Assembly (NCBI GenBank): GCA_963717845.1
Contig: CAVQXH010000001.1
Location: 1,264,942-1,328,941 of the forward strand
DNA length: 64,000 nucleotides
Reading direction: 5' to 3'
From: an uncultured Actinomycetes bacterium
GTDB lineage: Bacteria; Actinomycetota; Thermoleophilia; Gaiellales; JAICJC01
Shown here: positions 3,674 through 50,603 of the stretch, one piece after another
Position numbering within the stretch: the first letter of the stretch is position 1
Layout of the letters: the number at the start of each line of letters is the position of its first letter
The notes under the pieces: model-generated
The model's input: the letters and a program-made list of their open reading frames with translations, nothing else
Database searches by the model: none
Told to the model about the DNA's origin: nothing
Position numbers and translations under genes: made by a program

Positions 3674-3760
3674 CAGGGGACACGTTTGCGCGCGAACCCT
3701 TTACTCCGGCCGATCGACCTGATTCACTAGGCGCGGAAACCCGTTCCTCAAGGAGGTCTC

Positions 3761-5287
3761 ATGGCGGTCGATAGCGGCGCTCCTGACTACGAGGGTGGTG
3801 GCCTCAGCCGGGAGACGAACTGGTGGGGCGCATTCGTCATCGGACTCGCCGGCACGATTCTTGTGACGGGGATCGCGCCGGTGATGGTGACGTCCCTCGG
3901 GGCTGCGGCGATCCCCGTGATGGTCGTGATCACGATCACCGGGTATTTGCTGTGCCTGATCCTCGCGGAGCTCTCCGCGATGATGCCGGAGCGGACGGGC
4001 GGCTCTCCCACCTACGCCTACGTGGCATATAAGGACAAGTGGCCGCGGTTCGCCAAGCACGTGAACGGGTTCACGTCGTGGGCGTACTGGCTGGGCTGGT
4101 TCCCGGTCGCCCCGCTGAACATGATCCTGGCCTCGTTCTACATCACCGAGAAGTTCAACCTCTCGCAGAAGGGGTTCACGCCGATCCACACGCCGATCGC
4201 GTACTGGACGATCGTGATCTCCGTGGTCGGGATCCTGATCGTCTTCATCCCGGCGTGGCTGGGGATCCGGCTCGGGGCGATGTTCGCGACCGTGCTCGGC
4301 CTCCTGTCGATGATCCCGCTGACGCTGCTCGCGCTCATGCCGTTCCTGCATCCGTCGGCCGCCGACTGGGGCAACCTGTCCGGCTTCCACCAGCTGGACG
4401 GCACAGGATTCTTCACGCCTGACCTCGGCCATAACTGGCTCACCATCTACATCGCGTTCTCCTTCCTGCTGACGTGGAACGTGATCGCGATGGAGGCGGC
4501 CGCGTGCTACATCGGCGAGTGCCGCGACCCGGAGCGCGACGCCAAGATCGCGATGAACCTCGAGGGCCTGTACGGCCTGTTCATCTACACCATGATCCCG
4601 ATCGCGTTCGTGGTCGTCCTGGGCGCCACCGCGCTCAGCGATCCGAGCCAGGCCGACCCGCGCACCATCTTCTCCACGTTCGCCACGGCGGTGTTCGGGA
4701 CAGGTGCGTCGTGGCTCGACTGGGCGATCTCGATCATGCTGATCATCGCGCTCTCCCTGTCCGTGCTGAACGCGATCATGGGCTCGGCGCGCGCGCTGCA
4801 TCAGATGTCGATCGACGGCGAGTTCCCGCGCATCTTCTCGAGCGTGAACAGGCACGGCGTGCCCGGCTTCTCGATGGGCTTCAACGTCGTCTGCTCGATC
4901 CTGCTCATCTTCACGGGCGGCGCGGTCGAGATCTACTCGCTCTCGAACGTCGGCTACCTGGCGTCGTTCATTCCCGTCCTCGTCGGCTACTACCTGCTGC
5001 GCAAGTACCGGCCCGACATGAAGCGCCCGGTGCGCCTGCCGGAGTTCTTCAAGTACATCGCACTCCTGATGGCGGCCGGCTACTTCGTCATCTGGAGCTA
5101 CGGCGGGCTCGTCTACACGAGCCTTCCGAACGCGTTGCTCGGCGGCGCCGACACGCGGATCTACTTCTTCATCGGCTGGGCCATCCTGCTCTCCTACCTG
5201 CCGCTGTACTGGTACCGCATCAAGGTGGAGGATCCCAAGCACGCCCGGGAGGCGCCCGAGGCGCCGCAGATGGCCGCCGGCGACTGA
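3761..5287 (+). CDS. APC-superfamily amino acid/polyamine permease
   Basis: 508-aa polytopic membrane ORF with about 12 hydrophobic segments. A strong RBS (aaggagg) lies upstream of the ATG. Confidence 0.8.
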   Translation: MAVDSGAPDYEGGGLSRETNWWGAFVIGLAGTILVTGIAPVMVTSLGAAAIPVMVVITITGYLLCLILAELSAMMPERTGGSPTYAYVAYKDKWPRFAKHVNGFTSWAYWLGWFPVAPLNMILASFYITEKFNLSQKGFTPIHTPIAYWTIVISVVGILIVFIPAWLGIRLGAMFATVLGLLSMIPLTLLALMPFLHPSAADWGNLSGFHQLDGTGFFTPDLGHNWLTIYIAFSFLLTWNVIAMEAAACYIGECRDPERDAKIAMNLEGLYGLFIYTMIPIAFVVVLGATALSDPSQADPRTIFSTFATAVFGTGASWLDWAISIMLIIALSLSVLNAIMGSARALHQMSIDGEFPRIFSSVNRHGVPGFSMGFNVVCSILLIFTGGAVEIYSLSNVGYLASFIPVLVGYYLLRKYRPDMKRPVRLPEFFKYIALLMAAGYFVIWSYGGLVYTSLPNALLGGADTRIYFFIGWAILLSYLPLYWYRIKVEDPKHAREAPEAPQMAAGD

Positions 5288-8373: not shown

Positions 8374-8862
8374 TGCCCTATGGCCCCGTCCCCACCTTGT
8401 ACAAGGCCCGCGGCGTGCCGCTCAAGCAGGCGGTGTGCGCCATCTGCGTCGACCGGACGCGCGGGCGCACGCGCAAGGTGACGCTGACGAACCGGGTGAG
8501 CGTCCATCTCTGCGAAGCGCATGCCGACCGCAGCTTCCAGACGCGCCGCGGTGGGCGCGACTTCGTGCGCACGCTGATGGGCGTGTGGCGGGCGAACGAC
8601 TGCCTCACCCTCGCCCGCAGCAGGGCGCTCGCCGCGCACCTCGACGAACCTGGCCGGGCACTCCGCCCGCCCGCGGCCCGGCAGCTACACGTGGCCGGAG
8701 CTGCGCCGCGACCTCGAGGCCCGCTACGCCGGCGGCGCGACACCGGCGCAGCTGCACCCGGCGATGCACGCTCGCCTGGCGCCGTTCCCGGCCCACCCGC
8801 CGAGCCGGCGCACCCTGCAGCGCTGGCATGCCGAGCACCGCTGGCTCGCCAGAGCGCCGTAG
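8374..8862 (+). pseudogene. Hypothetical Cys-cluster protein with an apparent +1 frame break near 8636-8645
   Basis: The N-terminal part (MPYGPVPTLYKARGVPLKQAVCAICVDRT...HLCEAH...AAHLD) is in the frame of ORF 8295. From about 8641, GC3 bias switches to the +1 frame (..GSYTWPELRRDLEARYAGGATPAQLH...RRTLQRWHAEHRWLARAP, stop at 8860-8862). Confidence 0.5.
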
Positions 8863-8937
8863 CCGCGGAGTCCCGCCACCCCCTTCGCTAGACTGGAAAC
8901 CCGCGCGGCCCCTCCGACCGAAGGTAGCGACTCCGGC

Positions 8938-10251
8938 TTGATCTCTCGCTATACCCGCCCCGCCATCGGCGCCGTATGGTCGGACGAGCGCAAGTTCCAG
9001 CGGTGGCTGGACGTGGAGATCGCAGCGATGGCCGCCTGGTCTGACCTGGGTGTGCTCCCCGGCGCCGCGGTCGACGCTGTCCGTGCCCGCGCCCGCATCG
9101 ACGTCGGCCGCATCGGCGAGATCGAGGACCGCACCCACCACGACGTGCTGGCCTTCACCGAGTCGGTGGCCGAGCAGGTCGGCGAGGAGGCCCGCTGGTT
9201 CCACTACGGCCTCACGTCGTCCGACGTCGTCGACACTGCCCTCGCTCTGCAGCTGCGCGACGCGGGCGAGCTCCTGCTCGCCGGCATCGACGCCGTCGAG
9301 CGGGCCGCCGTCGCCCGCGCCGAGGAGTTCCGGCACACGCCGATCATCGGCCGCACGCACGGCGTGCACGCCGAGCCGACGACGTTCGGCCTCGTGCTGC
9401 TCGGCTGGGTGACCGAGCTGCGCCGCCAGCGCGTGCGGCTGGGCGATGCCTTCGAGGGCGTCCGCGTCGGCAAGCTCTCCGGCGCTGTGGGCGCCTACGC
9501 CAACTCCGATCCGCGCATGGAGGCGCTCGCCCTGCACGACCTCGGTCTGGAGCGCGAGGACGTCGCCACCCAGGTGGTGCCGCGCGATCGCCACGCCGCC
9601 CTGCTCTCGGCCGTGGCGGGCGTCGGCGCGTCGCTCGAGCGGTTCGCCGTCGAGGTGCGGCACCTGCAGCGCACCGAGGTGCGGGAGGCGCTCGAGCCGT
9701 TCGCCACAGGGCAGAAGGGCAGCTCGGCGATGCCGCACAAGCGCAACCCGATCGTGTGCGAGCGCATCTGCGGCCTCGCCCGGATCCTGCGCGCGAACGC
9801 CCACGTCGGCCTCGAGGACGTCGCCCTCTGGCACGAGCGCGACATCTCCCACTCCTCGGCCGAGCGCGTCGTCCTGCCCGACTCCACCATCGCCCTCGAC
9901 TACATGCTCGACCGCACCCGCTGGCTGATCGAGGGCCTCGCGGTCGACCCCGAGCGAATGCTGCGAAACCTGGAGGCGTCGCACGGCCTGGTGTTCTCGG
10001 GCCGGGCGCTCCTGCGCCTGGTCGAGGCCGGCATGAGCCGGGAGGCGGCATACGAGCTGGTGCAGCGAAACGCGCTCGCCGCGTGGGACCAGGAGGTGGC
10101 GCTGCGCAGCCTGCTCGAGGCTGACGCCGACGTCGCGGCCGTCCTGACCGCGGCCGACCTCGACCAGATCTTCGACCTCGACGCCCTGCTCGTCCACGTG
10201 GACGAGATCTTCGACCGCACGCTACGACGCCCGGAGGTTGCCCATGCCTGA
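8938..10251 (+). CDS. purB: Adenylosuccinate lyase
   Basis: 437 aa. The sequence YTRP...WSDE.KF..WL.VE, GLTSSDVVDTA and SSAMPHKRNP form the fumarate-lyase signature. The start codon is TTG. Confidence 0.95.
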   Translation: MISRYTRPAIGAVWSDERKFQRWLDVEIAAMAAWSDLGVLPGAAVDAVRARARIDVGRIGEIEDRTHHDVLAFTESVAEQVGEEARWFHYGLTSSDVVDTALALQLRDAGELLLAGIDAVERAAVARAEEFRHTPIIGRTHGVHAEPTTFGLVLLGWVTELRRQRVRLGDAFEGVRVGKLSGAVGAYANSDPRMEALALHDLGLEREDVATQVVPRDRHAALLSAVAGVGASLERFAVEVRHLQRTEVREALEPFATGQKGSSAMPHKRNPIVCERICGLARILRANAHVGLEDVALWHERDISHSSAERVVLPDSTIALDYMLDRTRWLIEGLAVDPERMLRNLEASHGLVFSGRALLRLVEAGMSREAAYELVQRNALAAWDQEVALRSLLEADADVAAVLTAADLDQIFDLDALLVHVDEIFDRTLRRPEVAHA

Positions 10252-39929: not shown

Positions 39930-40749
39930 GTGACCGCGCCCGCGGCGACCTCCTTCACGTTCGAGCCGGCCTTCGCCGTGGCCGCCGCCCTGGCCGCGGT
40001 GGTGTACCTGCGCGCCGCCCACCGGGCGGCCGTCCCAGGCTGGCGGCGGGCATCGTTCCTCGCAGGGATGGTGCTGATGGCCGCCCCGCTCAACTCGCCG
40101 CTCGAGACGATCGCGGTGCACTACCTGCTGCTCGGCCACCTGGTGCAGAACGCGCTCATCGCCGATCTGGCGCCGCCGCTCGCTGCTGCTCGGGCTCACG
40201 GCCGGCATGGGCGCGGCGATCCTGCGCCGGCTGGGCCCGACCGGGCGGCTGCTGCAGTCGGGCTTCGGCTGGCCGCTGTGGGTGGTGGGGTGGTACGGCA
40301 CCCACCTCGCCCGTCCCTACACCTACGCCCTCGAGCACCCGCTGGCGCTCGACGCCGAGCACGCGTTCCTGATCCTGATCGGCCTGTGCTTCTGGTGGCC
40401 CGTGGTGGTGCCGGGCCCGCGCCGGATGGGCTCGGGCGTCGCCGTGCTCTACCTGCTCGGGGCCTTCGTCGCCGCCTCGTTCCTCGGCCTCGCCTACACC
40501 TTCATCCCGACGCCGCTCTACGCCTACTACGTCCACGCCCCGCGGCTCTGGGGCATCTCGGCGGCCCGCGACCAGAACCTCGGCGGAGTGCTCATGACCG
40601 CCGAGCAGTCGGCCGTGTTCCTGACCGCGGTGGCGCTCACGCTCCTGCGCCTGCTCGAGGAGGAGCAGGAGCGGGCCGACCACCAGGTGGCGGCGGCGCT
40701 CGAGGGCGAGGCCGCGCGGGCGGGGAGCGCGCCGGCGCGAGAGGATTAG
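39930..40749 (+). pseudogene. ctaG: CtaG-like cytochrome c oxidase assembly factor (COG3336 type), copy 1, with an apparent +1 frame break near 40178-40190
   Basis: The N-terminal 84 aa are in the frame of ORF 39930 (..HLVQNALIADLAPPL). The sequence continues in the frame of ORF 40207 (LLLLGLTAGMGAAILRRL...). The joined product is colinear with copy 2. Confidence 0.7.
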
Positions 40750-40755
40750 CGCCGC

Positions 40756-41586
40756 ATGCTGCCGCTCCTCGCCGCACGGGACGTGTCGGCCGCCTCGATC
40801 GCGGGCGCCTGGCACCTGCGCCCGGCGGCGGCCGTGTTCACGATCCTGGCCCTGGCGGCGTTCGCCCCCGCCTTCGCCCGCGCCCGCCGCAGCGATCCGG
40901 CGGGGGCGCCGTGGACGCGCGCCGCGCTCTTCGCCGCGGGCGTCGCCCTGATGACGGTGCCGTTGTGCTCGCCGCTCAACGCCGCCGCCGAGCGCTATCT
41001 GCTGTCGGCGCACATGCTCGAGCATGTGCTCCTGGCCGACGCCGGCCCGGCGCTGCTCGTGCTGGCCGTGCGCGGGCCGATCGCCCGGGGCATGGCCGAG
41101 CGGCTGCGGCCACTGCGGCCGGTGACCGACGTGCTGTTGCGACCTGGCGTCACGCTCGCAGCGTGGGCGGGCGTGATCGGCCTCTGGCACGTGCCGGCCC
41201 TGTATGACCGCGCGCTCGGGTCGGCCGCGCTGCACAACCTCGAGCATGCCTCGTTCGTCCTCGTCGGGACGTTGGTCTGGATCCAGATGATCGACCCCAC
41301 CGGCAGCGGCCGGCTGGCGCTGCCCGGGCGGCTGGCCTTCACGGTGGCCGTGTTCTTCGCCGGCCAGGTGCTCTCCGACGCGCTCGTGTTCTCGTTCCAT
41401 GCGTACTACCCGGCGTACGCCGATCAGCCCGGCCGCCTGCTCGGGCTCTCGCCGCTCGCCGACCAGCGCCTAGCGGGCATCGTGATGGCGCTCGAGCAGC
41501 TGCTGACGCTGGGGACGTGCTTCGTGGTGCTCCTGCTCCAGCTGCGCCGCGGCGGCCGGCTGCAGCGGGCTGTGATGCGCGCTTAA
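40756..41586 (+). CDS. ctaG: CtaG-like cytochrome c oxidase assembly factor, copy 2 (intact)
   Basis: 276-aa polytopic protein with HMLEHVLLADAGPALLVLA...NLEHASFVLVG..., the conserved His-containing motifs. Confidence 0.8.
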   Translation: MLPLLAARDVSAASIAGAWHLRPAAAVFTILALAAFAPAFARARRSDPAGAPWTRAALFAAGVALMTVPLCSPLNAAAERYLLSAHMLEHVLLADAGPALLVLAVRGPIARGMAERLRPLRPVTDVLLRPGVTLAAWAGVIGLWHVPALYDRALGSAALHNLEHASFVLVGTLVWIQMIDPTGSGRLALPGRLAFTVAVFFAGQVLSDALVFSFHAYYPAYADQPGRLLGLSPLADQRLAGIVMALEQLLTLGTCFVVLLLQLRRGGRLQRAVMRA

Positions 41587-41607
41587 GACTCGCGGCGGCC
41601 ATCATGA

Positions 41608-41743
41608 GGGCCGGTTGAGGCGGCCGGGAATACGTTGGCCGCATGACCGCCGCCTCGCCCGCTCCGGCACCGCAGCGTGACGCAATCTTGAGCCTCCCGG
41701 CCCGATCTTTCAGGGCCGGTTGAGGCGTTCGTGCCTACGTTGG
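41608..41743 (+). promoter_or_regulatory. Three-part leader: duplicated GGGCCGGTTGAGGCG-N8-TACGTTGG elements flanking a complementary GAGCCTCCCGGCCC segment
   Basis: Copy 1 is 41608-41622 plus 41631-41638. Copy 2 is 41713-41727 plus 41736-41743. The complement is at 41690-41703. Copy 2 contains the GAGG Shine-Dalgarno sequence 5 nt before the GTG at 41731. Confidence 0.6.
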
Positions 41744-42375
41744 GGACGATGATTCAGCACGACTCCAAGGCTGGCCGCCGGGCCTCCGCAGAGACGGACG
41801 CGCTCCCCAGCCCGCTGCGCTCGGCCGCTCCGTACGCCGTCATCCTCGCGGCCGCGCCGGTGATGGCGGCGGGGCGTGCCATCACGTGGCGCTGGGCCCT
41901 CGCAATGGCGACCGCAGCGCTCGTCGCCGCGGCAGGTGCAGGTGCCTGGGGCTGGATGCGGCGCGTCATGGTGTGCGACCTGGCCGACCGGTGGATCGCC
42001 ACCGGCGCCGGCGCGCCGCCCGCGGACGCCGTCGTGACGCAGCGCCGGGCGCAGCTCTCGAGCACGCGCGAGCAGCGCATGCTGGCCACGTCGCTGCGGC
42101 GGCTCGTCGCCGCCGCTCAGGAGCCTGCGCGCGTCTCGGCGCGGGTGCCCACCGACCGCCGGGCCGTGCGCGCCGAGGCCGCGGCGATCGAGCGCCTGGC
42201 GGCGCACCTGGCTGATGTGAACACGCCGGTCGAGGCGCGCAGCGTCGCCCTCGTGCACCTGCTCGTCTCCGACGCCGGCAGCCCGCTTTACCGCAATGGA
42301 CAGCCGGGCGGGGAGGACCTGCACCGGCGCCTGACCCAGGTGCTGTTCGAGATCGAGAGAGGTGTGGACCGATGA
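41731..42375 (+). CDS. Hypothetical membrane protein (2 predicted TM segments plus a helical soluble domain), first gene of the kdp transcription unit
   Basis: 214-aa ORF. Its stop overlaps (ATGA) the next small ORF, which overlaps kdpF. I recognised no family. Confidence 0.6.
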   Translation: MPTLGTMIQHDSKAGRRASAETDALPSPLRSAAPYAVILAAAPVMAAGRAITWRWALAMATAALVAAAGAGAWGWMRRVMVCDLADRWIATGAGAPPADAVVTQRRAQLSSTREQRMLATSLRRLVAAAQEPARVSARVPTDRRAVRAEAAAIERLAAHLADVNTPVEARSVALVHLLVSDAGSPLYRNGQPGGEDLHRRLTQVLFEIERGVDR

Positions 42376-42455
42376 ATGATGTGGAGTCAATCGTGCTCAT
42401 GGTCGTCTGCATGGTGGCCATGTTCGGCGTGATCGCCGGATTCGAGCGTCTGTGA
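42372..42455 (+). CDS. 27-aa hydrophobic peptide (MNDVESIVLMVVCMVAMFGVIAGFERL)
   Basis: Hand-translated. It has an ATGA overlap upstream and a TGATG overlap with kdpF downstream. GC3 is mostly G/C. Confidence 0.5.
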   Translation: MNDVESIVLMVVCMVAMFGVIAGFERL

Positions 42456-42544
42456 TGGCCGGCAGCGACATCTTCGGCCTCGTCGTCTCGATCCTGCTCT
42501 TCGTCTACCTCTGCTACGCGCTCTTTCGAGGGGAGAACCTGTAG
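42455..42544 (+). CDS. kdpF: K+-transporting ATPase subunit F
   Basis: Hand-translated as MAGSDIFGLVVSILLFVYLCYALFRGENL, which matches the KdpF pattern (..YL.YAL..). It ends 1 nt before the kdpA ATG. Confidence 0.8.
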   Translation: MAGSDIFGLVVSILLFVYLCYALFRGENL

Positions 42545-44269
42545 ATGACCCTCATTCCCGCGCAGGGGATCGCGCAGATCCTCTTCTACGTCATCGTGCT
42601 GCTGGCGGTGACGCCGCTCCTGGGCTCCTACATGGCCCGGGTGTACGAGGGCGAGGACGTCCTGCTCGCCCGCTGGTTCGGCGTTGCGGAGCGCGGCTTC
42701 TACCGCCTGCTGCGGACATCGCCCGAGGACGAGCAGGACTGGAAGGGCTACGGCACGAGCGTGATCGTGTTCAGCCTGCTCTTCCTGATCCCGCTGTACG
42801 TGCTCCTGCGTGTGCAGGGACACCTGCCGCTCAATCCTGACCACCTCCCGAGCGTCAACGCCGGCGTCGCCGCGAACACCGCCTCGAGCTTCGTCACGAA
42901 CACGAACTGGCAGTACTACGGCGGCGAGTACACCATGAGCTACCTGAGCCAGATGGCCGGCCTCGCGGTGCAGAACTTCATCTCGGCCGCCGTCGGCATG
43001 GCCGTGCTGGCCGCGATGATCCGCGGCTTCGCCCGCCGCGAGACCTCCAAGCTCGGCAACTTCTGGGTCGATCTCTACCGCACGACCGCCTACATCCTGC
43101 TGCCGATCTGCATCGTCACGGCGGCCTTCTTCATCTGGCAGGGCGTCCCCGACACGTTCAGCGGCCACGCGGTCGCGCACACCGTCCAGGGCCACACGCA
43201 GAGCATCGCCCGCGGGCCGGTGGCGTCCCAGATCGCGATCAAGCAGCTGGGCACGAACGGCGGCGGCTTCTACAACTCGAACTCGGCCGTGCCGTTCGAG
43301 AACCCGACCGGGTTCACGAACTTCGTCTCGATGCTGTTCCTGCTGATCATCGGATCGGCAGAGGTGTTCATGTTCGGGAAGATGGTGCGGGCGACCCGGC
43401 AGGGGTGGTCGATCCTCGCGGTCATGTTCATCCTGATGATCGCGGGCGTCGTGATCGCCGCCCCCGCCGAGCAGCACGCATCGCCGGTGCTGCGCCAGTC
43501 GGGCGTCAACATCACGGCGTCGGCCAATTCGCCCGGCGGCAACATGGAGGGCAAGGAGATCCGCTGGGGGATCGCCAACAGCGCTCTTTGGGCCGACGCG
43601 ACGACCGACGCCTCAAACGGCTCGGTGAACGCGAGCCACGACTCGATGACGGCCCTCGGCGGCGCGGTGCCGCTGACCAACATCTTCATCGGCGAGGTGA
43701 TCTTCGGCGGTGTCGGCTCGGGCCTCTACGGCATGCTCATGCTGGTCATCATCGCCGTCTTCGTCGGCGGCCTGATGGTCGGGCGCACGCCCGAGTACCT
43801 GGGCAAGAAGATCGAGGCCCGGGAGATGAAGCTGGCCGTGATCGGCTCGATCTGGGTGCCGCTCGTCGTGCTCGTCCTGACGGCCGTCGCGATGTCGACG
43901 CACGCGGGCAAGCTCTCGATCTTCAACGCCGGCCCGCACGGCTTCACCGAGGCGTTCTACGCCTACACGTCGCAGACCAACAACAACGGCAGCGCCTTCG
44001 CCGGCTACGGGGCGCTGCACTTCTCGACCATGCTCGGCGCATTCGCGATGCTGGTGGGGCGGTTCGTGCCGCTCCTGGCGGCGCTCGCGATCGGCGGCTC
44101 GGTGGCGCTCAAGAAGACCGCCCCCGCGTCGGCCGGGACGATGCGCACCGACGGGCCAACGTTCGTGGTGCTCCTGACCGGCGTCGTCATCCTGCTGCCC
44201 GCCCTCACCATCCTGCCCGCGATCGTGCTGGGCCCGGTGGTCGAGGCACTCACAACGAAGCTCTTCTAG
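42545..44269 (+). CDS. kdpA: K+-transporting ATPase subunit A
   Basis: 574 aa, with TNTNWQ.Y.GE, QLGTNGGGF.N.NSA.PFEN and NNGSAFAG. Confidence 0.95.
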   Translation: MTLIPAQGIAQILFYVIVLLAVTPLLGSYMARVYEGEDVLLARWFGVAERGFYRLLRTSPEDEQDWKGYGTSVIVFSLLFLIPLYVLLRVQGHLPLNPDHLPSVNAGVAANTASSFVTNTNWQYYGGEYTMSYLSQMAGLAVQNFISAAVGMAVLAAMIRGFARRETSKLGNFWVDLYRTTAYILLPICIVTAAFFIWQGVPDTFSGHAVAHTVQGHTQSIARGPVASQIAIKQLGTNGGGFYNSNSAVPFENPTGFTNFVSMLFLLIIGSAEVFMFGKMVRATRQGWSILAVMFILMIAGVVIAAPAEQHASPVLRQSGVNITASANSPGGNMEGKEIRWGIANSALWADATTDASNGSVNASHDSMTALGGAVPLTNIFIGEVIFGGVGSGLYGMLMLVIIAVFVGGLMVGRTPEYLGKKIEAREMKLAVIGSIWVPLVVLVLTAVAMSTHAGKLSIFNAGPHGFTEAFYAYTSQTNNNGSAFAGYGALHFSTMLGAFAMLVGRFVPLLAALAIGGSVALKKTAPASAGTMRTDGPTFVVLLTGVVILLPALTILPAIVLGPVVEALTTKLF

Positions 44270-44286
44270 AGAGGGGCGACATCACC

Positions 44287-44865
44287 ATGCGCAAGGACAT
44301 CATCCGCTCGGCGATCGTGATCGTCGCGAGCACCGTCGTGCTCGGGTTGATCTACCCCGCGGTGATGGTGCTGTTCGGCCAGGTCTTCTTCTCGAGCCAG
44401 GCCAACGGCAGCCTCATCACCCGCAACGGCAAGACCGTGGGCTCGAAGCTCGCCGCGCAGGCGTTCAACGGCCCGCGCTACTTCCACGAGCGCCCGTCGG
44501 CGGTCGCCTATAACGCCGCCGGCACGAGCTTCTCCAACCTCGGCCCGAACGCCAAGGCGCTGCGGACGCTCGTGAAGACCCGGATCCGGAAGATCATGGC
44601 GCTCGAGGGGCCGTACAACCCCGGTCTGACCGTCCACGACATTCCGGTCGACGCCGTTACGGCCTCGGCATCGGGCATCGACCCCGAGATCTCGAAGGCG
44701 TACGCCTACCTGCAGGCGCCGCGGATCGCGGCGGTGCGGCACCTGCCGCTCGCGACCGTCCGCAGCCTGATCACCTCACACGTCACCGGCCGCTCCCTGG
44801 GCTTCCTCGGGGAGCCGGGCGTGAACGTGCTCGAGCTCAACCTCGCACTCGACCAGGAGCACTGA
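44287..44865 (+). CDS. kdpC: K+-transporting ATPase subunit C
   Basis: The ATG at 44287 gives an N-terminal TM, then GSLI..NGK.VGS.L.AQ.F....[19 protein letters not shown] and [10 protein letters not shown]. Confidence 0.9.
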
Positions 44866-46922
44866 TGGCCCGGCAAGAAGCCAAGCTGTTCACGCGGGAG
44901 ATCGTCACCCGCGCGACGATCGACTCGATCAAGAAGCTCGATCCCCGGATCCAGCTGCGAAATCCGGTCATGTTCGTGGTCGAGGTGGGCTCGGCGATCA
45001 CCACCGCCACCTTCTTCATCGACCTGATCGGCGGCGGCGGCCAGGCGCTCTGGTTCACCGGCGACATCGCCCTCTGGCTGTGGCTCACGGTGATCTTCGC
45101 GAACTTCGCCGAGGCGATCGCCGAGGGCCGCGGCAAGGCCCAGGCCGACACGCTGCGGGCGATGCGCACGACGACGCTGGCCACGAGGCGGCGCGACGAC
45201 GGCGGCACCGAGCAGGTGCCGGCCCCCGAGCTGCGGCGCGGCGACATCGTGGTGGTCGAGGCCGGCGAGGCGATCCCCGCAGACGGAGACGTCGTCGAGG
45301 GCATCGGCTCGGTGGACGAGTCGGCCATCACCGGCGAGTCGGCGCCGGTGATCCGCGAGTCGGGCGGCGACCGCTCGGCCGTCACCGGCGGCACCCGGCT
45401 GCTCTCCGACCGCCTGGTCGTCCAGGTCACGCAGGAGCCGGGCAAGTCCTTCCTCGACCGCATGATCGCGCTGGTCGAGGGCGCGGCCCGGCGCAAGACG
45501 CCCAACGAGATCGCGCTCAACATCCTGCTCGCCGGCCTCACCCTGATCTTCCTGGTCGCCGTCGTGACGCTGCAGCCGTTCGCCCTGTATGCCAAGAGCG
45601 GCGTCTCGACGACCGTGCTGATCTGCCTGCTCGTGGCGTTGATCCCGACCACGATCGGCGCGCTGCTCTCCTGCATCGGCATCGCCGGCATGGACCGGCT
45701 CGTGCGCCGCAACGTGCTCGCCCTGTCGGGCCGCGCGGTCGAGGCCTCGGGCGACATCGACGTGCTCCTGCTCGACAAGACGGGCACGATCACGCTCGGC
45801 AACCGCGAGGCCGTCGAGTTCATCCCCGCCCCGGGGGTGGAGCCGCACGACCTGGCCGAGGCCGCCCAGCTCTCGTCGCTGGCCGACGAGACGCCCGAGG
45901 GCCGCTCGATCGTCGTCCTCGCCAAGCAGTTCGGCGTGCGCGAGCACGAGCTCTCGACCATCGAGGCCGAGTTCGTCCCCTTCTCGGCCACCACCCGCAT
46001 GAGCGGTGTGAACATGAACGGCACGGTCATCCGCAAGGGCGCGACCGACGCGGTGCGCCACTTCGTCGAGGAGAGCGGCGGCCGCGTGCCGGCCGAGGTC
46101 GACGCGGCCGTCGATCGCATCGCCCGGGACGGCGGCACCCCGCTCGTCGTCGCCCGCGACAACTGGACGCTTGGCGTCATCTACCTGAAGGACATCGTCA
46201 AGGGCGGCATCAAGGAGCGCTTCGACGAGCTGCGCAAGATGGGCATCCGCACGGTGATGATCACCGGGGACAACCCCGTCACGGCCGCATTCATCGCCAA
46301 CGAGTCCGGTGTCGACGACTTCCTGGCCGAGGCGACGCCCGAGAACAAGATGGCCCTGATCAAGGAGGAGCAGGCCAAGGGCCGCATGGTCGCCATGACC
46401 GGCGACGGCACGAACGACGCGCCCGCGCTCGCCCAGGCCGACGTCGGCGTCGCCATGAACACCGGCACGCAGGCCGCGAAGGAGGCCGGCAACATGGTCG
46501 ACCTCGACTCCAACCCGACCAAGCTGATCGAGATCGTCGAGGTGGGCAAGCAGCTGCTGATCACGCGCGGCGCCCTGACCACGTTCTCGATCGCAAACGA
46601 CGTGGCCAAGTACTTCGCGATCCTGCCGGCCATGTTCGCGTTCACGTATGCGGCCCATCCCGGCGATCACGGGCCGCTCTGGACGATCAACGTCATGAAG
46701 CTCGGGACGCCGCTCTCGGCGGTCACCTCGGCCATCATCTTCAACGCCCTGGTCATCCCGATCCTGATCCCGCTCTCGCTGCGCGGCGTCCGCTACCGCG
46801 CGATCGGCGCCACCGCCCTGCTGCGCCGGAATCTGCTCATCTACGGCCTGGGCGGCATCATCGCGCCCTTCATCGGCATCAAGCTGATCGACCTCGTGGT
46901 GCACAACGTCCTCGGGGCGTAG
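44865..46922 (+). CDS. kdpB: K+-transporting P-type ATPase subunit B
   Basis: 685 aa, with the phosphorylation motif DKTGTIT, TGDNP and [18 protein letters not shown]. Confidence 0.95.
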
Positions 46923-46931
46923 GGTCGGCGG

Positions 46932-48020
46932 ATGCGCGGCCGATTCCGGATCCTGCTGGGTGCCGCCGCCGGGGTGGGGAAGACCTACCGCATGCTGCAG
47001 GAGGGCCGTCAGGCGGCGCTCGAGGGCGTCGATGTCGTCATCGGCTACCTCGAGCCGCACGACCGCCCCGAGACGGCGGCGCTCGCCGAGGGGCTCGAGG
47101 TCGTGGCGCGGCGGACGGTCGAGCACCAGGGGGTGGCGCTCCAGGAGATGGACACCGTCGCGGTCATCCGCCGCGCGCCGGAGCTCACCCTGATCGACGA
47201 GCTCGCCCACACGAACGCCCCCGGCTCGCGCCACGCCAAGCGCTACCAGGACATCGAGGACGTGCTCGACGCGGGCATCGACGTCATCTCCACCGTCAAC
47301 GTCCAGCACCTCGAGAGCCTGAACGACACGGTGTTCGAGCTGACCGGCGTGCGCGTCCGCGAGACGTTCCCCGACAGCATCCTGGACGAGGCCGACGAGG
47401 TCGTGCTGGTCGACCTCTCCCCGCAGGAGCTGCAGGAGCGCCTGCGCGCGGGCAAGGTGTACCCGATGAGCCGGGTCGACACGGCGCTGCAGAACTTCTT
47501 CCGCACCGAGAACCTGGGGGCGCTGCGCCAGCTCGCGCTGCGGGAGCTGTCCGAGGATGTCGAGGCCCGGCGCGAGACCGCAGTGATCGACCCGGCCGCG
47601 CAGCAGGCCATCCTCGAGCGGATCCTCGTCCTGGTCACGCCGCAGCCGAGCTCGCAGCGGCTGCTGCGGCGGGCCTGGCGCTCGGCTCAGCGGCTCGGTG
47701 CCGACATCGACGTCCTGTGGGTGCGCGACCCGGGCGAGCGCCTCTCCGAGGAGCAGACCGTCGCGCTGGCGGCGCTGCGGCGGCTCGCCGCGATCCTGGG
47801 CGCGCACTTCCTCGAGGAGGAGAGCGGCGACGTGATCGCGTCGGTGCGGTCGATCGTGATCGACCGCGGGACGACCTACGTCTACCTGGGCACGCCCGCG
47901 CGCCGCCGCGCCGAGGAGATCCTGCACGGAGCGTTCCTGGGCCGGCTGATCGCCGCGCTGCCGGGCGTCGACATCCGCATCGCAGCCGACCGCGCCCGCC
48001 GGCGGGAGCTGCACCCGTGA
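46932..48020 (+). CDS. kdpD: KdpD N-terminal sensor module (KdpD domain + Usp domain) as a separate protein
   Basis: FRILLGAAAGVGKTYRML.EG...DVVIGY.E.H.R.ET...DELAHTN...RH.KRYQD...GIDV.STVN.QH.ESL is the KdpD N-terminal domain. It ends at RARRRELHP before any TM segment. Confidence 0.88.
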   Translation: MRGRFRILLGAAAGVGKTYRMLQEGRQAALEGVDVVIGYLEPHDRPETAALAEGLEVVARRTVEHQGVALQEMDTVAVIRRAPELTLIDELAHTNAPGSRHAKRYQDIEDVLDAGIDVISTVNVQHLESLNDTVFELTGVRVRETFPDSILDEADEVVLVDLSPQELQERLRAGKVYPMSRVDTALQNFFRTENLGALRQLALRELSEDVEARRETAVIDPAAQQAILERILVLVTPQPSSQRLLRRAWRSAQRLGADIDVLWVRDPGERLSEEQTVALAALRRLAAILGAHFLEEESGDVIASVRSIVIDRGTTYVYLGTPARRRAEEILHGAFLGRLIAALPGVDIRIAADRARRRELHP

Positions 48021-48496
48021 GGCTCGGCCGGCGCCGCACGCCCCAGGCCCGCCCGGGCGCGCCGCGGCTGCTCGTCCCGTTCTCCGGTGGGCAGCTCGAC
48101 CCGGCCGTGCTCGACGCCGCACTTCGGATCGCCCGCGCCGACGAGGCGGTGTTCGTCCCCGCCTACCTGATCATGGTCCCGTTCTCGCTGGCGCTCGACT
48201 CGCCGCTGCGGCAGGAGGTCGAGGTGGCCCTGCCGGTGCTCGAGGCGGTCGAGCTGCACGCCCAGGAGGAGGGGGTGCCCGTCGACGCGCGCCTGGAGCG
48301 GGGGCGGTCGCTGCGCGACGCGCTGCGGCGGCTGTGGGAGGTCGAGAGCTTCGACCGCATCCTGCTGCCCGTCTCGGCCGACGAGCGGGCCGGCTTCGAC
48401 GAGCGCGACATCGCCTGGATCCTGATGCACGCTCCGACCGAGACGCTCGCATTGCGGCCCGCGGCGGGCAGCGTCCGTGCGAGAGTGACGCGGTGA
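48017..48496 (+). CDS. Stand-alone Usp-like protein inserted between the two KdpD parts
   Basis: The GTGA start overlaps the upstream stop. GC3 is high. The sequence LLVPFSGG...FVPAYLIMVP...DRILLPV is a USP-like alpha/beta pattern. Confidence 0.6.
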   Translation: MRLGRRRTPQARPGAPRLLVPFSGGQLDPAVLDAALRIARADEAVFVPAYLIMVPFSLALDSPLRQEVEVALPVLEAVELHAQEEGVPVDARLERGRSLRDALRRLWEVESFDRILLPVSADERAGFDERDIAWILMHAPTETLALRPAAGSVRARVTR

Positions 48497-49905
48497 TCGC
48501 ACGCGCGTACGCGACGCTCGACAGCGCGTCGGGATCGCGCCGCCACGGGCTGGCCGTGGGCGCGAGCGTCGTCGTGCTGGTCGTCGTCACGGTGGCGATC
48601 GGGCTGCTGAAGTCGTTCGTGCCCGTGCTCAGCCTGGGCGTGCTCTACGTGTTCGCGGTGCTGCCCATCGCGGTCGCGTTCGGCCTGATCTACGCGGTGC
48701 TCGTCTCGATCGCGAGCATGCTCGCCTTCAACTGGTTCTTCCTGCCGCCGGTGCACACGTTCACGCTGTCTGACTCGCGCAACTGGTTTGCCCTGGCGGT
48801 GTACGTGGTCACGGCCGTCGTCGTCAGCGGCCTCGCCGCGAGCGCGCGCCGCCGGGCGACCGAGGCGGAGCAGCGCGAGGTCGAGACCGCCCTTCTGGCC
48901 GATGTGGCCGCCTCCCTGCTCGAGGGCGGCGACGTGGCCGCCGAGCTCGGGGCGATCAGCGAGCGCGTGGCGAGGATCCTGAAGGCACGGTCGGCGGCGA
49001 TCGTGCTCGGCGCCGAGCCGGGCCCGTCGCCGACGGCGGCGCCGATCGAGCTCGTGGCCGGCGCCCGCCGGGTCGGCACGCTCGAGCTGGTCGAGGGCGG
49101 CGAGCCGAACCTGGCCGCGCGCAGGCGGCTGCTGCCGGCGCTCGCCTCGCTCCTGGCGGTGGCGGTCGATCGCGAGCGGCTTGCGAACGAGGCGTTCGAG
49201 GCCGAGGCGCTGCGGCGGTCGGACACCATGAAGACCGCGGTGCTGCGGGCCGTCAGCCACGATCTGCGCTCTCCGCTCACGGCGATCCGGGCCGCGAGCG
49301 ACGGGCTCGAGGACGAGACGCTCGCGCTCACCGACGCCGATCGCCGCGAGCTGCTCGACACGATCAGCGTCGAGGTGCGCCGGCTCGAGGGCGTCGTCGA
49401 CAACCTGCTCGCCCTGTCCCGCCTGCAGGCCGGGGCGCTCGCACCGATGCCCGAGGTGTGGACGGTCGACGACCTGGTCTACGGGGCCCTGGCCGATGTC
49501 GGCAGGAGCACCGAGCGGGTGAACGTCTCGGTGCCGGCCGACACGCCGCCCGTGCTCGTCGACGCCGTGCAGGCGCGCCAGATCCTGAGCAACCTGATCG
49601 ACAACGCCCTCAAGTTCTCGCCGCCGGAGAGTCCGGTGAGCGTGCGCGTGACCAGGACGCGCAAGGAGGTGATCGTGCGCGTCGTCGACCAGGGCCGGGG
49701 CCTGCCCGAGAACGAGCTCGAGCACGTCTTCGAGCCGTTCTATCGCGGCGCTCCTGCGCAGGATCAGACCGGCACCGGCCTGGGCCTCGCCATCGCGCGC
49801 GGCTTCGCCGAGGCAAACGGCGGCCGCCTGTGGGCCGAGTCACGCCCGGGGCAGGGCGCCGGCTTCGCGCTCGCGCTGCCGCCCGCGGCCGAGGCCCCCG
49901 CGTGA
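48493..49905 (+). CDS. kdpD: KdpD C-terminal module: DUF4118-type TM region, GAF-like linker and HisKA-HATPase histidine kinase
   Basis: The start is a GTGA overlap. TM region: ..LSLGVLYVFAVLPIAVAFGL.. NWFFLPPVHTF. H-box: SHDLRSPLTAI. N/G boxes: NLIDNALKFSP, DQGRGLP, GTGLGLAIARG. Confidence 0.9.
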   Translation: MIARAYATLDSASGSRRHGLAVGASVVVLVVVTVAIGLLKSFVPVLSLGVLYVFAVLPIAVAFGLIYAVLVSIASMLAFNWFFLPPVHTFTLSDSRNWFALAVYVVTAVVVSGLAASARRRATEAEQREVETALLADVAASLLEGGDVAAELGAISERVARILKARSAAIVLGAEPGPSPTAAPIELVAGARRVGTLELVEGGEPNLAARRRLLPALASLLAVAVDRERLANEAFEAEALRRSDTMKTAVLRAVSHDLRSPLTAIRAASDGLEDETLALTDADRRELLDTISVEVRRLEGVVDNLLALSRLQAGALAPMPEVWTVDDLVYGALADVGRSTERVNVSVPADTPPVLVDAVQARQILSNLIDNALKFSPPESPVSVRVTRTRKEVIVRVVDQGRGLPENELEHVFEPFYRGAPAQDQTGTGLGLAIARGFAEANGGRLWAESRPGQGAGFALALPPAAEAPA

Positions 49906-50603
49906 GCACCGGCCTGATCCTGGTCGTCGACGACGAGCCCCAGATCCTGCGCGCCCTGACCACCAACCTGCGCGGCGCAGGCTACGAGGTCGTGCGCGCG
50001 GCCACCGCGGAAGAGGCGCTCGCGGCCGCCGCCACGCGGCCGCCCGACGCCGTGGTGCTCGACCTGGTGCTGCCCGACGGCTCCGGTGTGGACGTGTGCC
50101 GCGAGCTGCGGTCGTGGAGCCAGGTGCCCATCGTGATCCTGTCGGCGATCGGCGAGGAGAGCCAGAAGGTCGCCGCCCTCGACGCGGGCGCCGACGACTA
50201 CGTCACCAAGCCGTTCGGCATGGGCGAGCTCCTGGCCCGGCTGCGGGCGGCGATGCGCCGGGCGGCGCCGGCGGGCGGCGAGTCGATCGCCGTGGGCGGC
50301 CTCGTGGTCGACTTCGACCGCCACCAGGTGACCGTCGACGGCGTGCCCGTGCCGGTCACCCGGATCGAGTTCGACCTGCTGTCGCTCTTCGTGCGCAACG
50401 AGGGCAAGCTCCTCACCCATCGTACGATCCTGCGCGAGGTGTGGGGCCCGGCCTACCAGATCGAGTCGCACTATCTGCACGTCTACATCAGCAAGCTGCG
50501 GGGGAAGATCGAGCATGACCCGCGCCATCCGCAGTATCTGATCACCGAGCCGGGCGCCGGCTACCGGCTGACCCGCCCGGCGGCCGGCGGCGCGCCGGCG
50601 TGA
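49902..50603 (+). CDS. kdpE: OmpR-family response regulator KdpE
   Basis: The start is a GTGA overlap. The receiver domain is LVVDDEPQI...DLVLPDG.G and the winged-helix domain is THR.IL.EVWGP......HYLHVYIS.LR.K. Confidence 0.9.
   Translation: MSTGLILVVDDEPQILRALTTNLRGAGYEVVRAATAEEALAAAATRPPDAVVLDLVLPDGSGVDVCRELRSWSQVPIVILSAIGEESQKVAALDAGADDYVTKPFGMGELLARLRAAMRRAAPAGGESIAVGGLVVDFDRHQVTVDGVPVPVTRIEFDLLSLFVRNEGKLLTHRTILREVWGPAYQIESHYLHVYISKLRGKIEHDPRHPQYLITEPGAGYRLTRPAAGGAPA

Follow-up and report, generated by a model that had tools for sequence, protein, structure and literature searches.

The mechanistic and structural understanding of the Kdp potassium pump rests on the four-subunit complex of Escherichia coli, in which KdpF, a peptide of 29 amino acids and the fourth subunit, stabilizes the KdpFABC complex (PMC12648545, citing Gassel 1999; PMC6255902). 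Lineage-specific extra genes have been described in cyanobacteria, where kdpG is located between kdpB and kdpC (KdpABGCD; PMC13099474), and in Halobacterium, where kdpQ is located after kdpC (kdpFABCQ; PMC7002104), so that the E. coli set of 4 genes is not universal. Here, we describe a kdp locus in a 64-kb stretch of DNA with a G+C content of 73%, which we refer to as the window, from contig CAVQXH010000001.1 of an uncultured bacterium in the class Thermoleophilia. Two additional open reading frames (ORFs) precede kdpF in this locus, the first for a predicted membrane protein, ORF214, and the second for a hydrophobic peptide, pep27, which belongs to a peptide family here called pepX. We consider it probable that they are the first 2 cistrons of an operon with the gene order ORF214-pepX-kdpF-kdpA-kdpC-kdpB-kdpD(N), and that their products are accessory to the pump. 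The kdp operon itself is ordinary; what is new seems to be a family of unannotated peptides that accompanies kdpF in several phyla, together with the structurally novel, kdp-dedicated ORF214 family.

The genes at the head of the operon were as follows.

41749..42375, plus strand: ORF214, with a corrected start, 208 amino acids; a short N-terminal tail, 2 transmembrane (TM) helices and a cytoplasmic helical domain are predicted
42372..42455, plus strand: pep27, member of the pepX family, a membrane peptide of 27 amino acids with a single helix, MNDVESIVLMVVCMVAMFGVIAGFERL
42455..42544, plus strand: kdpF (TIGR02115, 3.8e-9; PF09604, 2e-5)
42545..44269, plus strand: kdpA (PF03814, 3.2e-223)

The junction between ORF214 and pep27 is ATGA, that between pep27 and kdpF is TGATG and that between kdpF and kdpA is TAG-ATG (TAGATG), and these, as well as the ORF coordinates, were confirmed in the sequence exactly as the original prediction had given them. 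Both additional ORFs are located on the same strand as kdpA, with overlapping or adjacent stop and start codons all the way down to this gene, and no terminator-like site was found between 41749 and 42545. A search against Rfam at E<=1 over positions 40500-43500 gave no match to a riboswitch or leader RNA. The ORF at 42455-42544 scored 36.2 bits with the KdpF family hidden Markov model (HMM), the cut-off of which is 26.85.

Spurious ORFs are common in high-G+C DNA, and 2 minus-strand ORFs of 226 and 503 amino acids overlap the same region, as might be expected if one or both of the additional ORFs were chance open frames. However, the G+C contents at the 3 codon positions of ORF214 (0.77/0.60/0.89) matched those of the neighboring genes, and the third-position signal was frame-specific along its length, as in coding sequence. 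The ratio of nonsynonymous to synonymous substitutions (dN/dS) was below 1 for both ORFs, with values of 0.07-0.2 for pep27 in comparisons with the loci L001, L002, L005 and L008, indicating that the protein was conserved through synonymous changes, and of 0.3-0.57 in pairwise comparisons of ORF214. In addition, homologs with as little as 27% identity keep the motifs, the structure of ORF214 was predicted with confidence from the family alignment, and pepX occupied the same position in more than 80 loci. An origin by chance in a genome of 73% G+C is thereby effectively excluded, and ORF214 and pep27 are real genes.

A search of genomes with KdpA identified 80 loci, all of which were from Thermoleophilia-type Actinomycetota (metagenome-assembled genomes [MAGs] of Gaiellales and Solirubrobacterales, and Patulibacter defluvii). 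The KdpA proteins of the 2 closest loci were 92% and 86% identical to that of the window. Of the 80 genome loci, 24 contained an ORF214-like gene directly upstream of pepX, and in 4 such a gene directly followed kdpB. The chain of ORF214-like gene, pepX, kdpF and kdpA was retained in L001-L008, and a loss of frame in most relatives was not seen. The same 4-gene chain was retained in L088 and L089 at an identity of 27-38%, and a gap of 83 nt on the P0172 contig was consistent with this chain. The synteny upstream of kdpF thus extends to distant relatives, in which the 3-gene chain recurs.

The strongest evidence for a single transcription unit was provided by the placement of a candidate promoter. 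A scan for the sigma-70 consensus found no promoter, and the module described here was instead found by comparison of the loci. In loci headed by pepX, the 68 nt preceding this gene shared a fixed architecture. It consisted of 4 heptamers with the consensus CTTCAGG, in 2 pairs with a spacing of 10-11 nt and with the pairs about 2 helical turns apart; these were followed, after a gap of 10 nt, by a TANNNT hexamer located 6-8 nt before the ATG. A position weight matrix (PWM) was trained on 10 loci with pepX as the first gene, and on those only. Over both strands of the 64 kb, this matrix gave only 2 positive scores, at 41674 and 41569, the next-best score in the window being -2.7 and the background -52 ± 11. 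The elements identified in this manner were as follows.

41674..41741, plus strand: putative kdp promoter module, the best PWM match in the window (26.1 bits, about 7 standard deviations above the mean)
41677, 41687, 41708 and 41719, plus strand: heptamers GTGACGC, CTTGAGC, TTTCAGG and GTTGAGG, respectively
41736-41741, plus strand: -10 hexamer TACGTT, followed by GGGGACG (7 nt) and the ATG at 41749
41569..41636, plus strand: upstream copy of the module, with phased heptamers and a -10 hexamer TACGTT at 41631-41636 (PWM score 13.8 bits), followed by an ATG at 41643
41643..41723, plus strand: putative remnant ORF of 26 amino acids, MTAASPAPAPQRDAILSLPARSFRAG, with its ATG 6 nt downstream of the first -10 hexamer

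The heptamer cores in the window were located at 41678, 41688, 41710 and 41720, with spacings of 10, 22 and 10 nt, compared to 11, 21 and 11 nt in other loci. As judged from the sequence only, these are tandem direct repeats about one helical turn apart, as in sites of the OmpR/PhoB type. Regulators of the OmpR family usually bind to direct repeats that are helically phased, and the 4 repeats are presumed to be binding sites for KdpE, which is of the OmpR type. A -10 hexamer located 6-8 nt before the ATG is the geometry of leaderless actinobacterial mRNAs. The 10 training loci showed this geometry, as did nearly all of the ORF214-first loci that were tested; L008 instead contained 12 nt between the hexamer and the start codon and a Shine-Dalgarno-like GGAG.

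In about 20 further loci in which ORF214 comes first, the single best PWM match (about 16-63 bits) was located immediately before the start of the ORF214-like gene, and no comparable match was found before pepX. Since the module precedes ORF214 where this gene is present, and pepX otherwise, ORF214 would head the kdp operon, likely as a leaderless first cistron. The suggestion in the original prediction that all of these genes are translated from one mRNA is thereby supported by the conserved gene chain, the promoter module ahead of ORF214 and the coupled junctions.

In L001, L002, L008 and L029, which contain 2 copies of the module, the position before ORF214 was the second-best PWM match. 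The equivalent of the upstream copy in these 4 loci precedes a gene for about 155 amino acids (an ORF of 137-160 amino acids) that is absent from the window and that showed no match to Pfam or any other family (LLVTTSAHV...HVVIPAVLPPTLPISAMP...). The window appears to have lost this gene by a deletion that left behind the stub of 26 amino acids and the second promoter copy. A direct repeat of about 40 nt upstream of ORF214 was also considered as a regulatory repeat, but it is actually the second copy of the whole promoter.

The position of the promoter module bears on the start codon of ORF214. An ORF of 214 amino acids is indeed present at 41731-42375, as originally predicted, but the GTG at 41731 would fall within the module. 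The first residue of the ORF214 homologs is the one aligned with M7, and the conserved -10 hexamer is located 7 nt upstream of the ATG at 41749, for which reason the gene most likely begins at this ATG and encodes a protein of 208 amino acids (41749-42375).

Two tandem genes of the Caa3_CtaG family, implicated in cytochrome oxidase assembly, are located directly 5' of the ORF214 region on the plus strand (39930-41586), with 145 nt between the ctaG end at 41586 and the ORF at 41731-42375. Very long ORFs in alternative frames overlap the ctaG region, which is typical of DNA with 73% G+C. ORF214 directly follows 2 genes of this family also in L001 and L005, it is absent from most of the surveyed kdp loci, and it contains no domain that points to potassium or ATPase biology. 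Conceivably, it could therefore be an unrelated membrane protein that shares the kdp transcript and is linked, for example, to the CtaG-like genes. However, we consider this quite unlikely, because it is the far-side neighbor of ORF214 that varies while the kdp side is constant: the ORF214 genes of the close clade are located between ctaG and pepX, whereas the distant ORF214-like genes with 27-38% identity (L088, L089 and the P0172 contig) are located between kdpE and pepX. The gene is also preceded by the kdp-type promoter, and all 5 of the ORF214-family contexts that were looked up were kdp loci.

In some Solirubrobacterales, moreover, the 3' end of kdpB was found to be coupled to a paralogous form without TM helices. 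The ORF214-like protein of 163 amino acids in L073 (8462-8953) lacks TM helices, and the ATG of its gene overlaps the stop codon of kdpB (ATGA). A domain of this type was also observed immediately after kdpB in L049, L051 and L082, at about 8450-9000. ORF214 exchanges its other neighbors, and even moves to the end of the operon, yet stays with kdp. Such behavior is classically taken to indicate a functional link, and on these comparative grounds we regard it as functionally linked to kdp rather than to ctaG.

The original prediction also described ORF214 as a membrane protein of no recognized family, and this agrees with the searches that we performed. The 20 close homologs, with 56-100% identity, were all derived from metagenomes or MAGs. 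A profile search recovered 1802 cluster representatives at E<1e-3, 237 of them at E<1e-10, and a word-indexed search with a broad ORF214 alignment added only 5 more distant members. The family motifs were ADxWI, located just after the TM helices, R..EL.S.R.RR.LA.SLRR, P.NR and PV..RGV....LLT...SPLY. Among 51 family members, there was no consistent match to Pfam or NCBIfam, and a match to PspM in one of the 51 was judged to be noise. A profile search against the sequences in the Protein Data Bank (PDB) gave no match (best E=0.75).

An AlphaFold2 model of ORF214, based on an alignment of 51 sequences, had a mean per-residue confidence (pLDDT) of 91.4 and a predicted template modeling score (pTM) of 0.82. 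In the model, the second of 2 TM helices runs on as a long helix that enters a helical bundle. A Foldseek search with this model against the PDB gave no match (best E=2.5, TM-score 0.18). ORF214 is thus an unnamed family that matches neither a curated family nor a solved fold and which, as far as seen, is restricted to Thermoleophilia. We infer that the conserved helical domain of about 130 residues is exposed to the cytoplasm and anchored by the 2 helices, since the form without TM helices contains no signal peptide.

The pepX family was more widespread than ORF214. A hydrophobic ORF of 23-42 amino acids adjoined kdpF in 81 of the 84 loci with a recognizable kdpF gene (73 of 76 genome loci). 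It ended within -1 to +38 nt of the kdpF start, and the stop codon of pepX overlapped the start codon of kdpF in 58 of the 81 cases. The consensus was MxDLxAIxIAxxCFAxxFxLIxxL[DE]R[VI], with a mean column identity of 55%; M1 was the sole invariant column, and R26 was nearly so. We describe pepX as a family of predicted single-helix membrane peptides of 26-27 amino acids, and because the N-terminus is acidic and the C-terminus basic, the predicted orientation is N-out, C-in. It was also noted that a subgroup of Solirubrobacterales (L048, L052-L055, L057, L066, L071 and L080, at about 3756-3912) contained a variant of 41-42 amino acids with a conserved N-terminal extension, ADIFPGGGGP(L/I)AD, before the helix and a start codon that was usually GTG or TTG.

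Like KdpF, pep27 is a single helix of less than 30 amino acids, and for both peptides the gene stands at the head of the operon, with a translational link to kdpA. However, it occurs alongside a bona fide KdpF protein and lacks the KdpF motif G-L...Y-L.YAL.RGE. Neither pep27 nor 61 members of the pepX family matched Pfam or NCBIfam, the KdpF models included, even at E-values of up to 1-10, and an hhalign comparison of the 61 pepX sequences with 42 KdpF sequences from the same genomes gave a probability of 15.8% over 15 columns. The description of pep27 as a second KdpF-sized peptide is correct in that it is of similar size and the product of a real gene, but paralogy with KdpF could not be demonstrated, and the idea that pep27 is a duplicate of KdpF was set aside as unsupported. 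In another locus, L089, an extra ORF of 90 amino acids was observed between kdpF and kdpA (1247-1519), the C-terminus of which (...VYAVVRGKRIL) resembles the tail of a second, degenerate KdpF.

To place pepX in a broader context, we examined outgroup kdp loci taken from a plasmid collection. An ORF of 26-27 amino acids with the same ends was present 10-100 nt upstream of kdpF in 8 loci from Alphaproteobacteria and Deinococcus: Azospirillum sp. B510, A. brasilense, Acetobacter pasteurianus, Rhizobium bangladeshense, Sinorhizobium terangae, S. meliloti pSymA, Phenylobacterium and Deinococcus radiodurans (for example, L092 4775-4858, L096 438-521, L102 627-707 and L103 326-409). These peptides start with M-x-D-[IL] and end with [DSTR]-[RN]-[LV]. 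Looser versions were identified in Novosphingobium and Mycetohabitans; one Burkholderiales locus counts among those with a look-alike ahead of kdpF. No pepX-like ORF was found in the kdp loci of E. coli, a Comamonadaceae plasmid, Cupriavidus, 4 Firmicutes, Picosynechococcus and Halobacterium. The statement in the original prediction that canonical kdp operons start with kdpF is accordingly true of E. coli, but not of those Alphaproteobacteria and Deinococcus in which unannotated pepX-like ORFs precede this gene.

We also scanned for a signature of 23-31 amino acids with the start M-x(0-2)-[DE]-[ILVFT], a hydrophobic core and the end [RKN]-[LVI], immediately upstream of kdpF, a pattern that was written after both sequence sets had been inspected. 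On the 2 strands of the window, pep27 was the sole match. The scan of about 750 kb of Thermoleophilia loci gave 68 matches, all at the kdpF position, and that of 67 kb of outgroup DNA gave one ORF per locus in 8 loci, all just upstream of kdpF. With an HMM built from the Thermoleophilia pepX sequences, the A. brasilense peptide ranked first of 1518 ORFs (E=0.008), and the scores of the other outgroup peptides were non-significant. We consider homology of these peptides across phyla to be likely but not proven.

The outgroup ORFs were missing from the annotation tables of the fetched records, and the pepX peptide is currently missed almost everywhere by annotation pipelines. Exact-sequence look-ups of the pepX-like peptides returned only the descriptions 'hypothetical protein' and 'conserved exported protein of unknown function'. 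A literature search that included the supplements of S. meliloti ribosome-profiling studies found no further peptide ahead of kdpF. For the Kdp pump, KdpF is the only peptide named in reviews of small membrane proteins.

The position of pepX could alternatively suggest a regulatory upstream ORF, for which the act of translation matters rather than the released peptide, for example by opening the mRNA, by coupling ribosomes into kdpF and kdpA, or by targeting the mRNA to the membrane. In most of the Thermoleophilia loci pepX is the first and apparently leaderless cistron, and its stop codon overlaps the kdpF start in the majority of cases, so that translation of kdpF may depend on it; the low sequence identity within the family would also fit such a role. 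Yet the amino acids of pep27 are under purifying selection in the close clade, and the length, hydrophobic core and charged ends of the peptide are conserved across phyla. Furthermore, the ORF of Proteobacteria and Deinococcus stops 10-100 nt short of kdpF, so that the coupling of stop and start codons is not conserved there. We consider a role in leader translation instead of a peptide role unlikely, although the 2 roles are compatible and not mutually exclusive. The reading that we slightly favor is that pepX is a KdpF-like accessory helix, that is, a small membrane subunit or stabilizer of the KdpA/KdpB assembly.

Taken together, a role as subunits or regulators of the Kdp complex, as originally proposed, is well supported for ORF214 and pep27 by comparative genomics and their dedicated linkage to kdp; physical membership of either protein in the pump complex is what we infer from this. 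Under potassium limitation, the regulator would bind the 4-repeat box, and RNA polymerase would begin at or next to the A of the ATG at 41749, giving a leaderless mRNA. Ribosomes would load on the 5' AUG and traverse ORF214, pep27, kdpF and kdpA via the overlapping or adjacent stop and start codons. The pep27 peptide would then insert as a single helix, N-out and C-in, beside the pump. ORF214 might, as a speculation, act as a membrane-tethered cytoplasmic accessory or regulatory partner, either of KdpB and the pump or of the soluble KdpD-N serine-kinase chain, which in E. coli phosphorylates KdpB at Ser162 (PMC11018627).

Several observations weigh against this interpretation. In 52 of the 80 genome loci, no ORF214-like gene was detected at a distance of up to 4 kb from kdpA, from which it follows that the pump does not strictly need ORF214, and the dN/dS values of ORF214 indicate moderate constraint only. 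The homology of the pepX peptides across phyla rests on length, position and a post hoc signature of the ends, with a single outgroup peptide found by the HMM. Finally, the KdpFABC complex of E. coli is functional, and its solved structure, with 4 subunits, contains neither protein (PMC6255902).

A bolder version, to which we give somewhat less than an even chance, is that pepX is an ancient and widespread fifth membrane component of Kdp, missed by gene callers, which ORF214 joins as a cytoplasmic regulator in Thermoleophilia. The range of such a component, equally tentative, would cover Thermoleophilia, Alphaproteobacteria, Deinococcus, some Betaproteobacteria and possibly mycobacteria, in which a 120-nt 'untranslated' leader precedes kdpF. 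It would have been overlooked because it is shorter than the length limits of gene callers and absent from E. coli. If an extra peptide is truly conserved in several phyla, many Kdp pumps would be five-component machines or be controlled by a peptide leader, and the carriers include tractable hosts, such as Sinorhizobium, Azospirillum, Deinococcus and relatives of Caulobacter. For the ORF214 family, which is uncharacterized but can be folded with confidence, the genomic context suggests an assignment to potassium homeostasis in Thermoleophilia, an abundant class in soil. The putative 4-repeat box and leaderless layout additionally offer a concrete regulon signature for the uncultured members of this class.

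The remaining genes of the locus were as follows.

44287..44865, plus strand: kdpC, between kdpA and kdpB (PF02669, 2.9e-64)
44865..46922, plus strand: kdpB, the P-type ATPase subunit (PF00122, PF00702), the start of which overlaps the kdpC stop via TGATG
46932..48020, plus strand: stand-alone chain with the KdpD N-terminal domain and Usp (PF02702, 5.6e-92; PF00582), beginning 9 nt after kdpB
48334..49905, plus strand: separate membrane histidine kinase with the domains DUF4118-HisKA-HATPase
49902..50603, plus strand: KdpE-like response regulator of the OmpR family (PF00072, 1.2e-28; PF00486, 4.1e-21), with a GTGA overlap with the kinase gene

The order of the pump genes was kdpF-kdpA-kdpC-kdpB, as compared to F-A-B-C in E. 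coli. The F-A-C-B order was observed in every Thermoleophilia locus with gene calls that was inspected (L002, L073 and L088), and the outgroup locus of Azospirillum has the F-A-B-C order.

The split arrangement of KdpD has parallels in Deinococcus, Anabaena and Alicyclobacillus, in which KdpD-N is a separate protein encoded after the pump genes (PMC11018627). The window is similar to these systems in that the KdpD-N/Usp gene directly follows the pump genes and that the histidine kinase and regulator are separate, but no ORF214-like protein has been reported for the split-KdpD systems, and the ORF214 HMM gave no match in the 3.3 kb covered of the Deinococcus locus. The cyanobacterial kdpG and the halobacterial kdpQ differ from pepX and ORF214 as compared by position, and the Picosynechococcus and Halobacterium loci are, as noted above, among those without pepX.

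To our knowledge, the only described kdp operon with 2 small ORFs before kdpA is that of Clostridium acetobutylicum, the products of which, OrfZ and OrfY, are said to be hydrophobic peptides that co-purify with the pump. This operon, kdpZYABCXDE (orfZ/kdpZ and orfY/kdpY; Treuner-Lange 1997, cited in PMC5401905), is likened to the window by description only, and it also contains an extra gene, kdpX. The 4 Firmicutes kdp loci examined here, unlike the window, contained no pepX-like ORF.

In its proposed action, pepX is similar to small membrane proteins that partner with transporters, to which it shows no sequence relation. Eukaryotic single-helix partners of P-type ATPases include sarcolipin, phospholamban and FXYD. 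In bacteria, MgtR/MgtS and AcrZ consist of a single helix that docks on, and modulates the stability or activity of, a transporter (PMC12648545). Finally, in Mycobacterium smegmatis the 5' end of the kdp transcript falls on the fourth base of a mis-annotated ORF, 120 nt ahead of kdpF (PMC5401905), which leaves room for a leaderless ORF of the pepX type.

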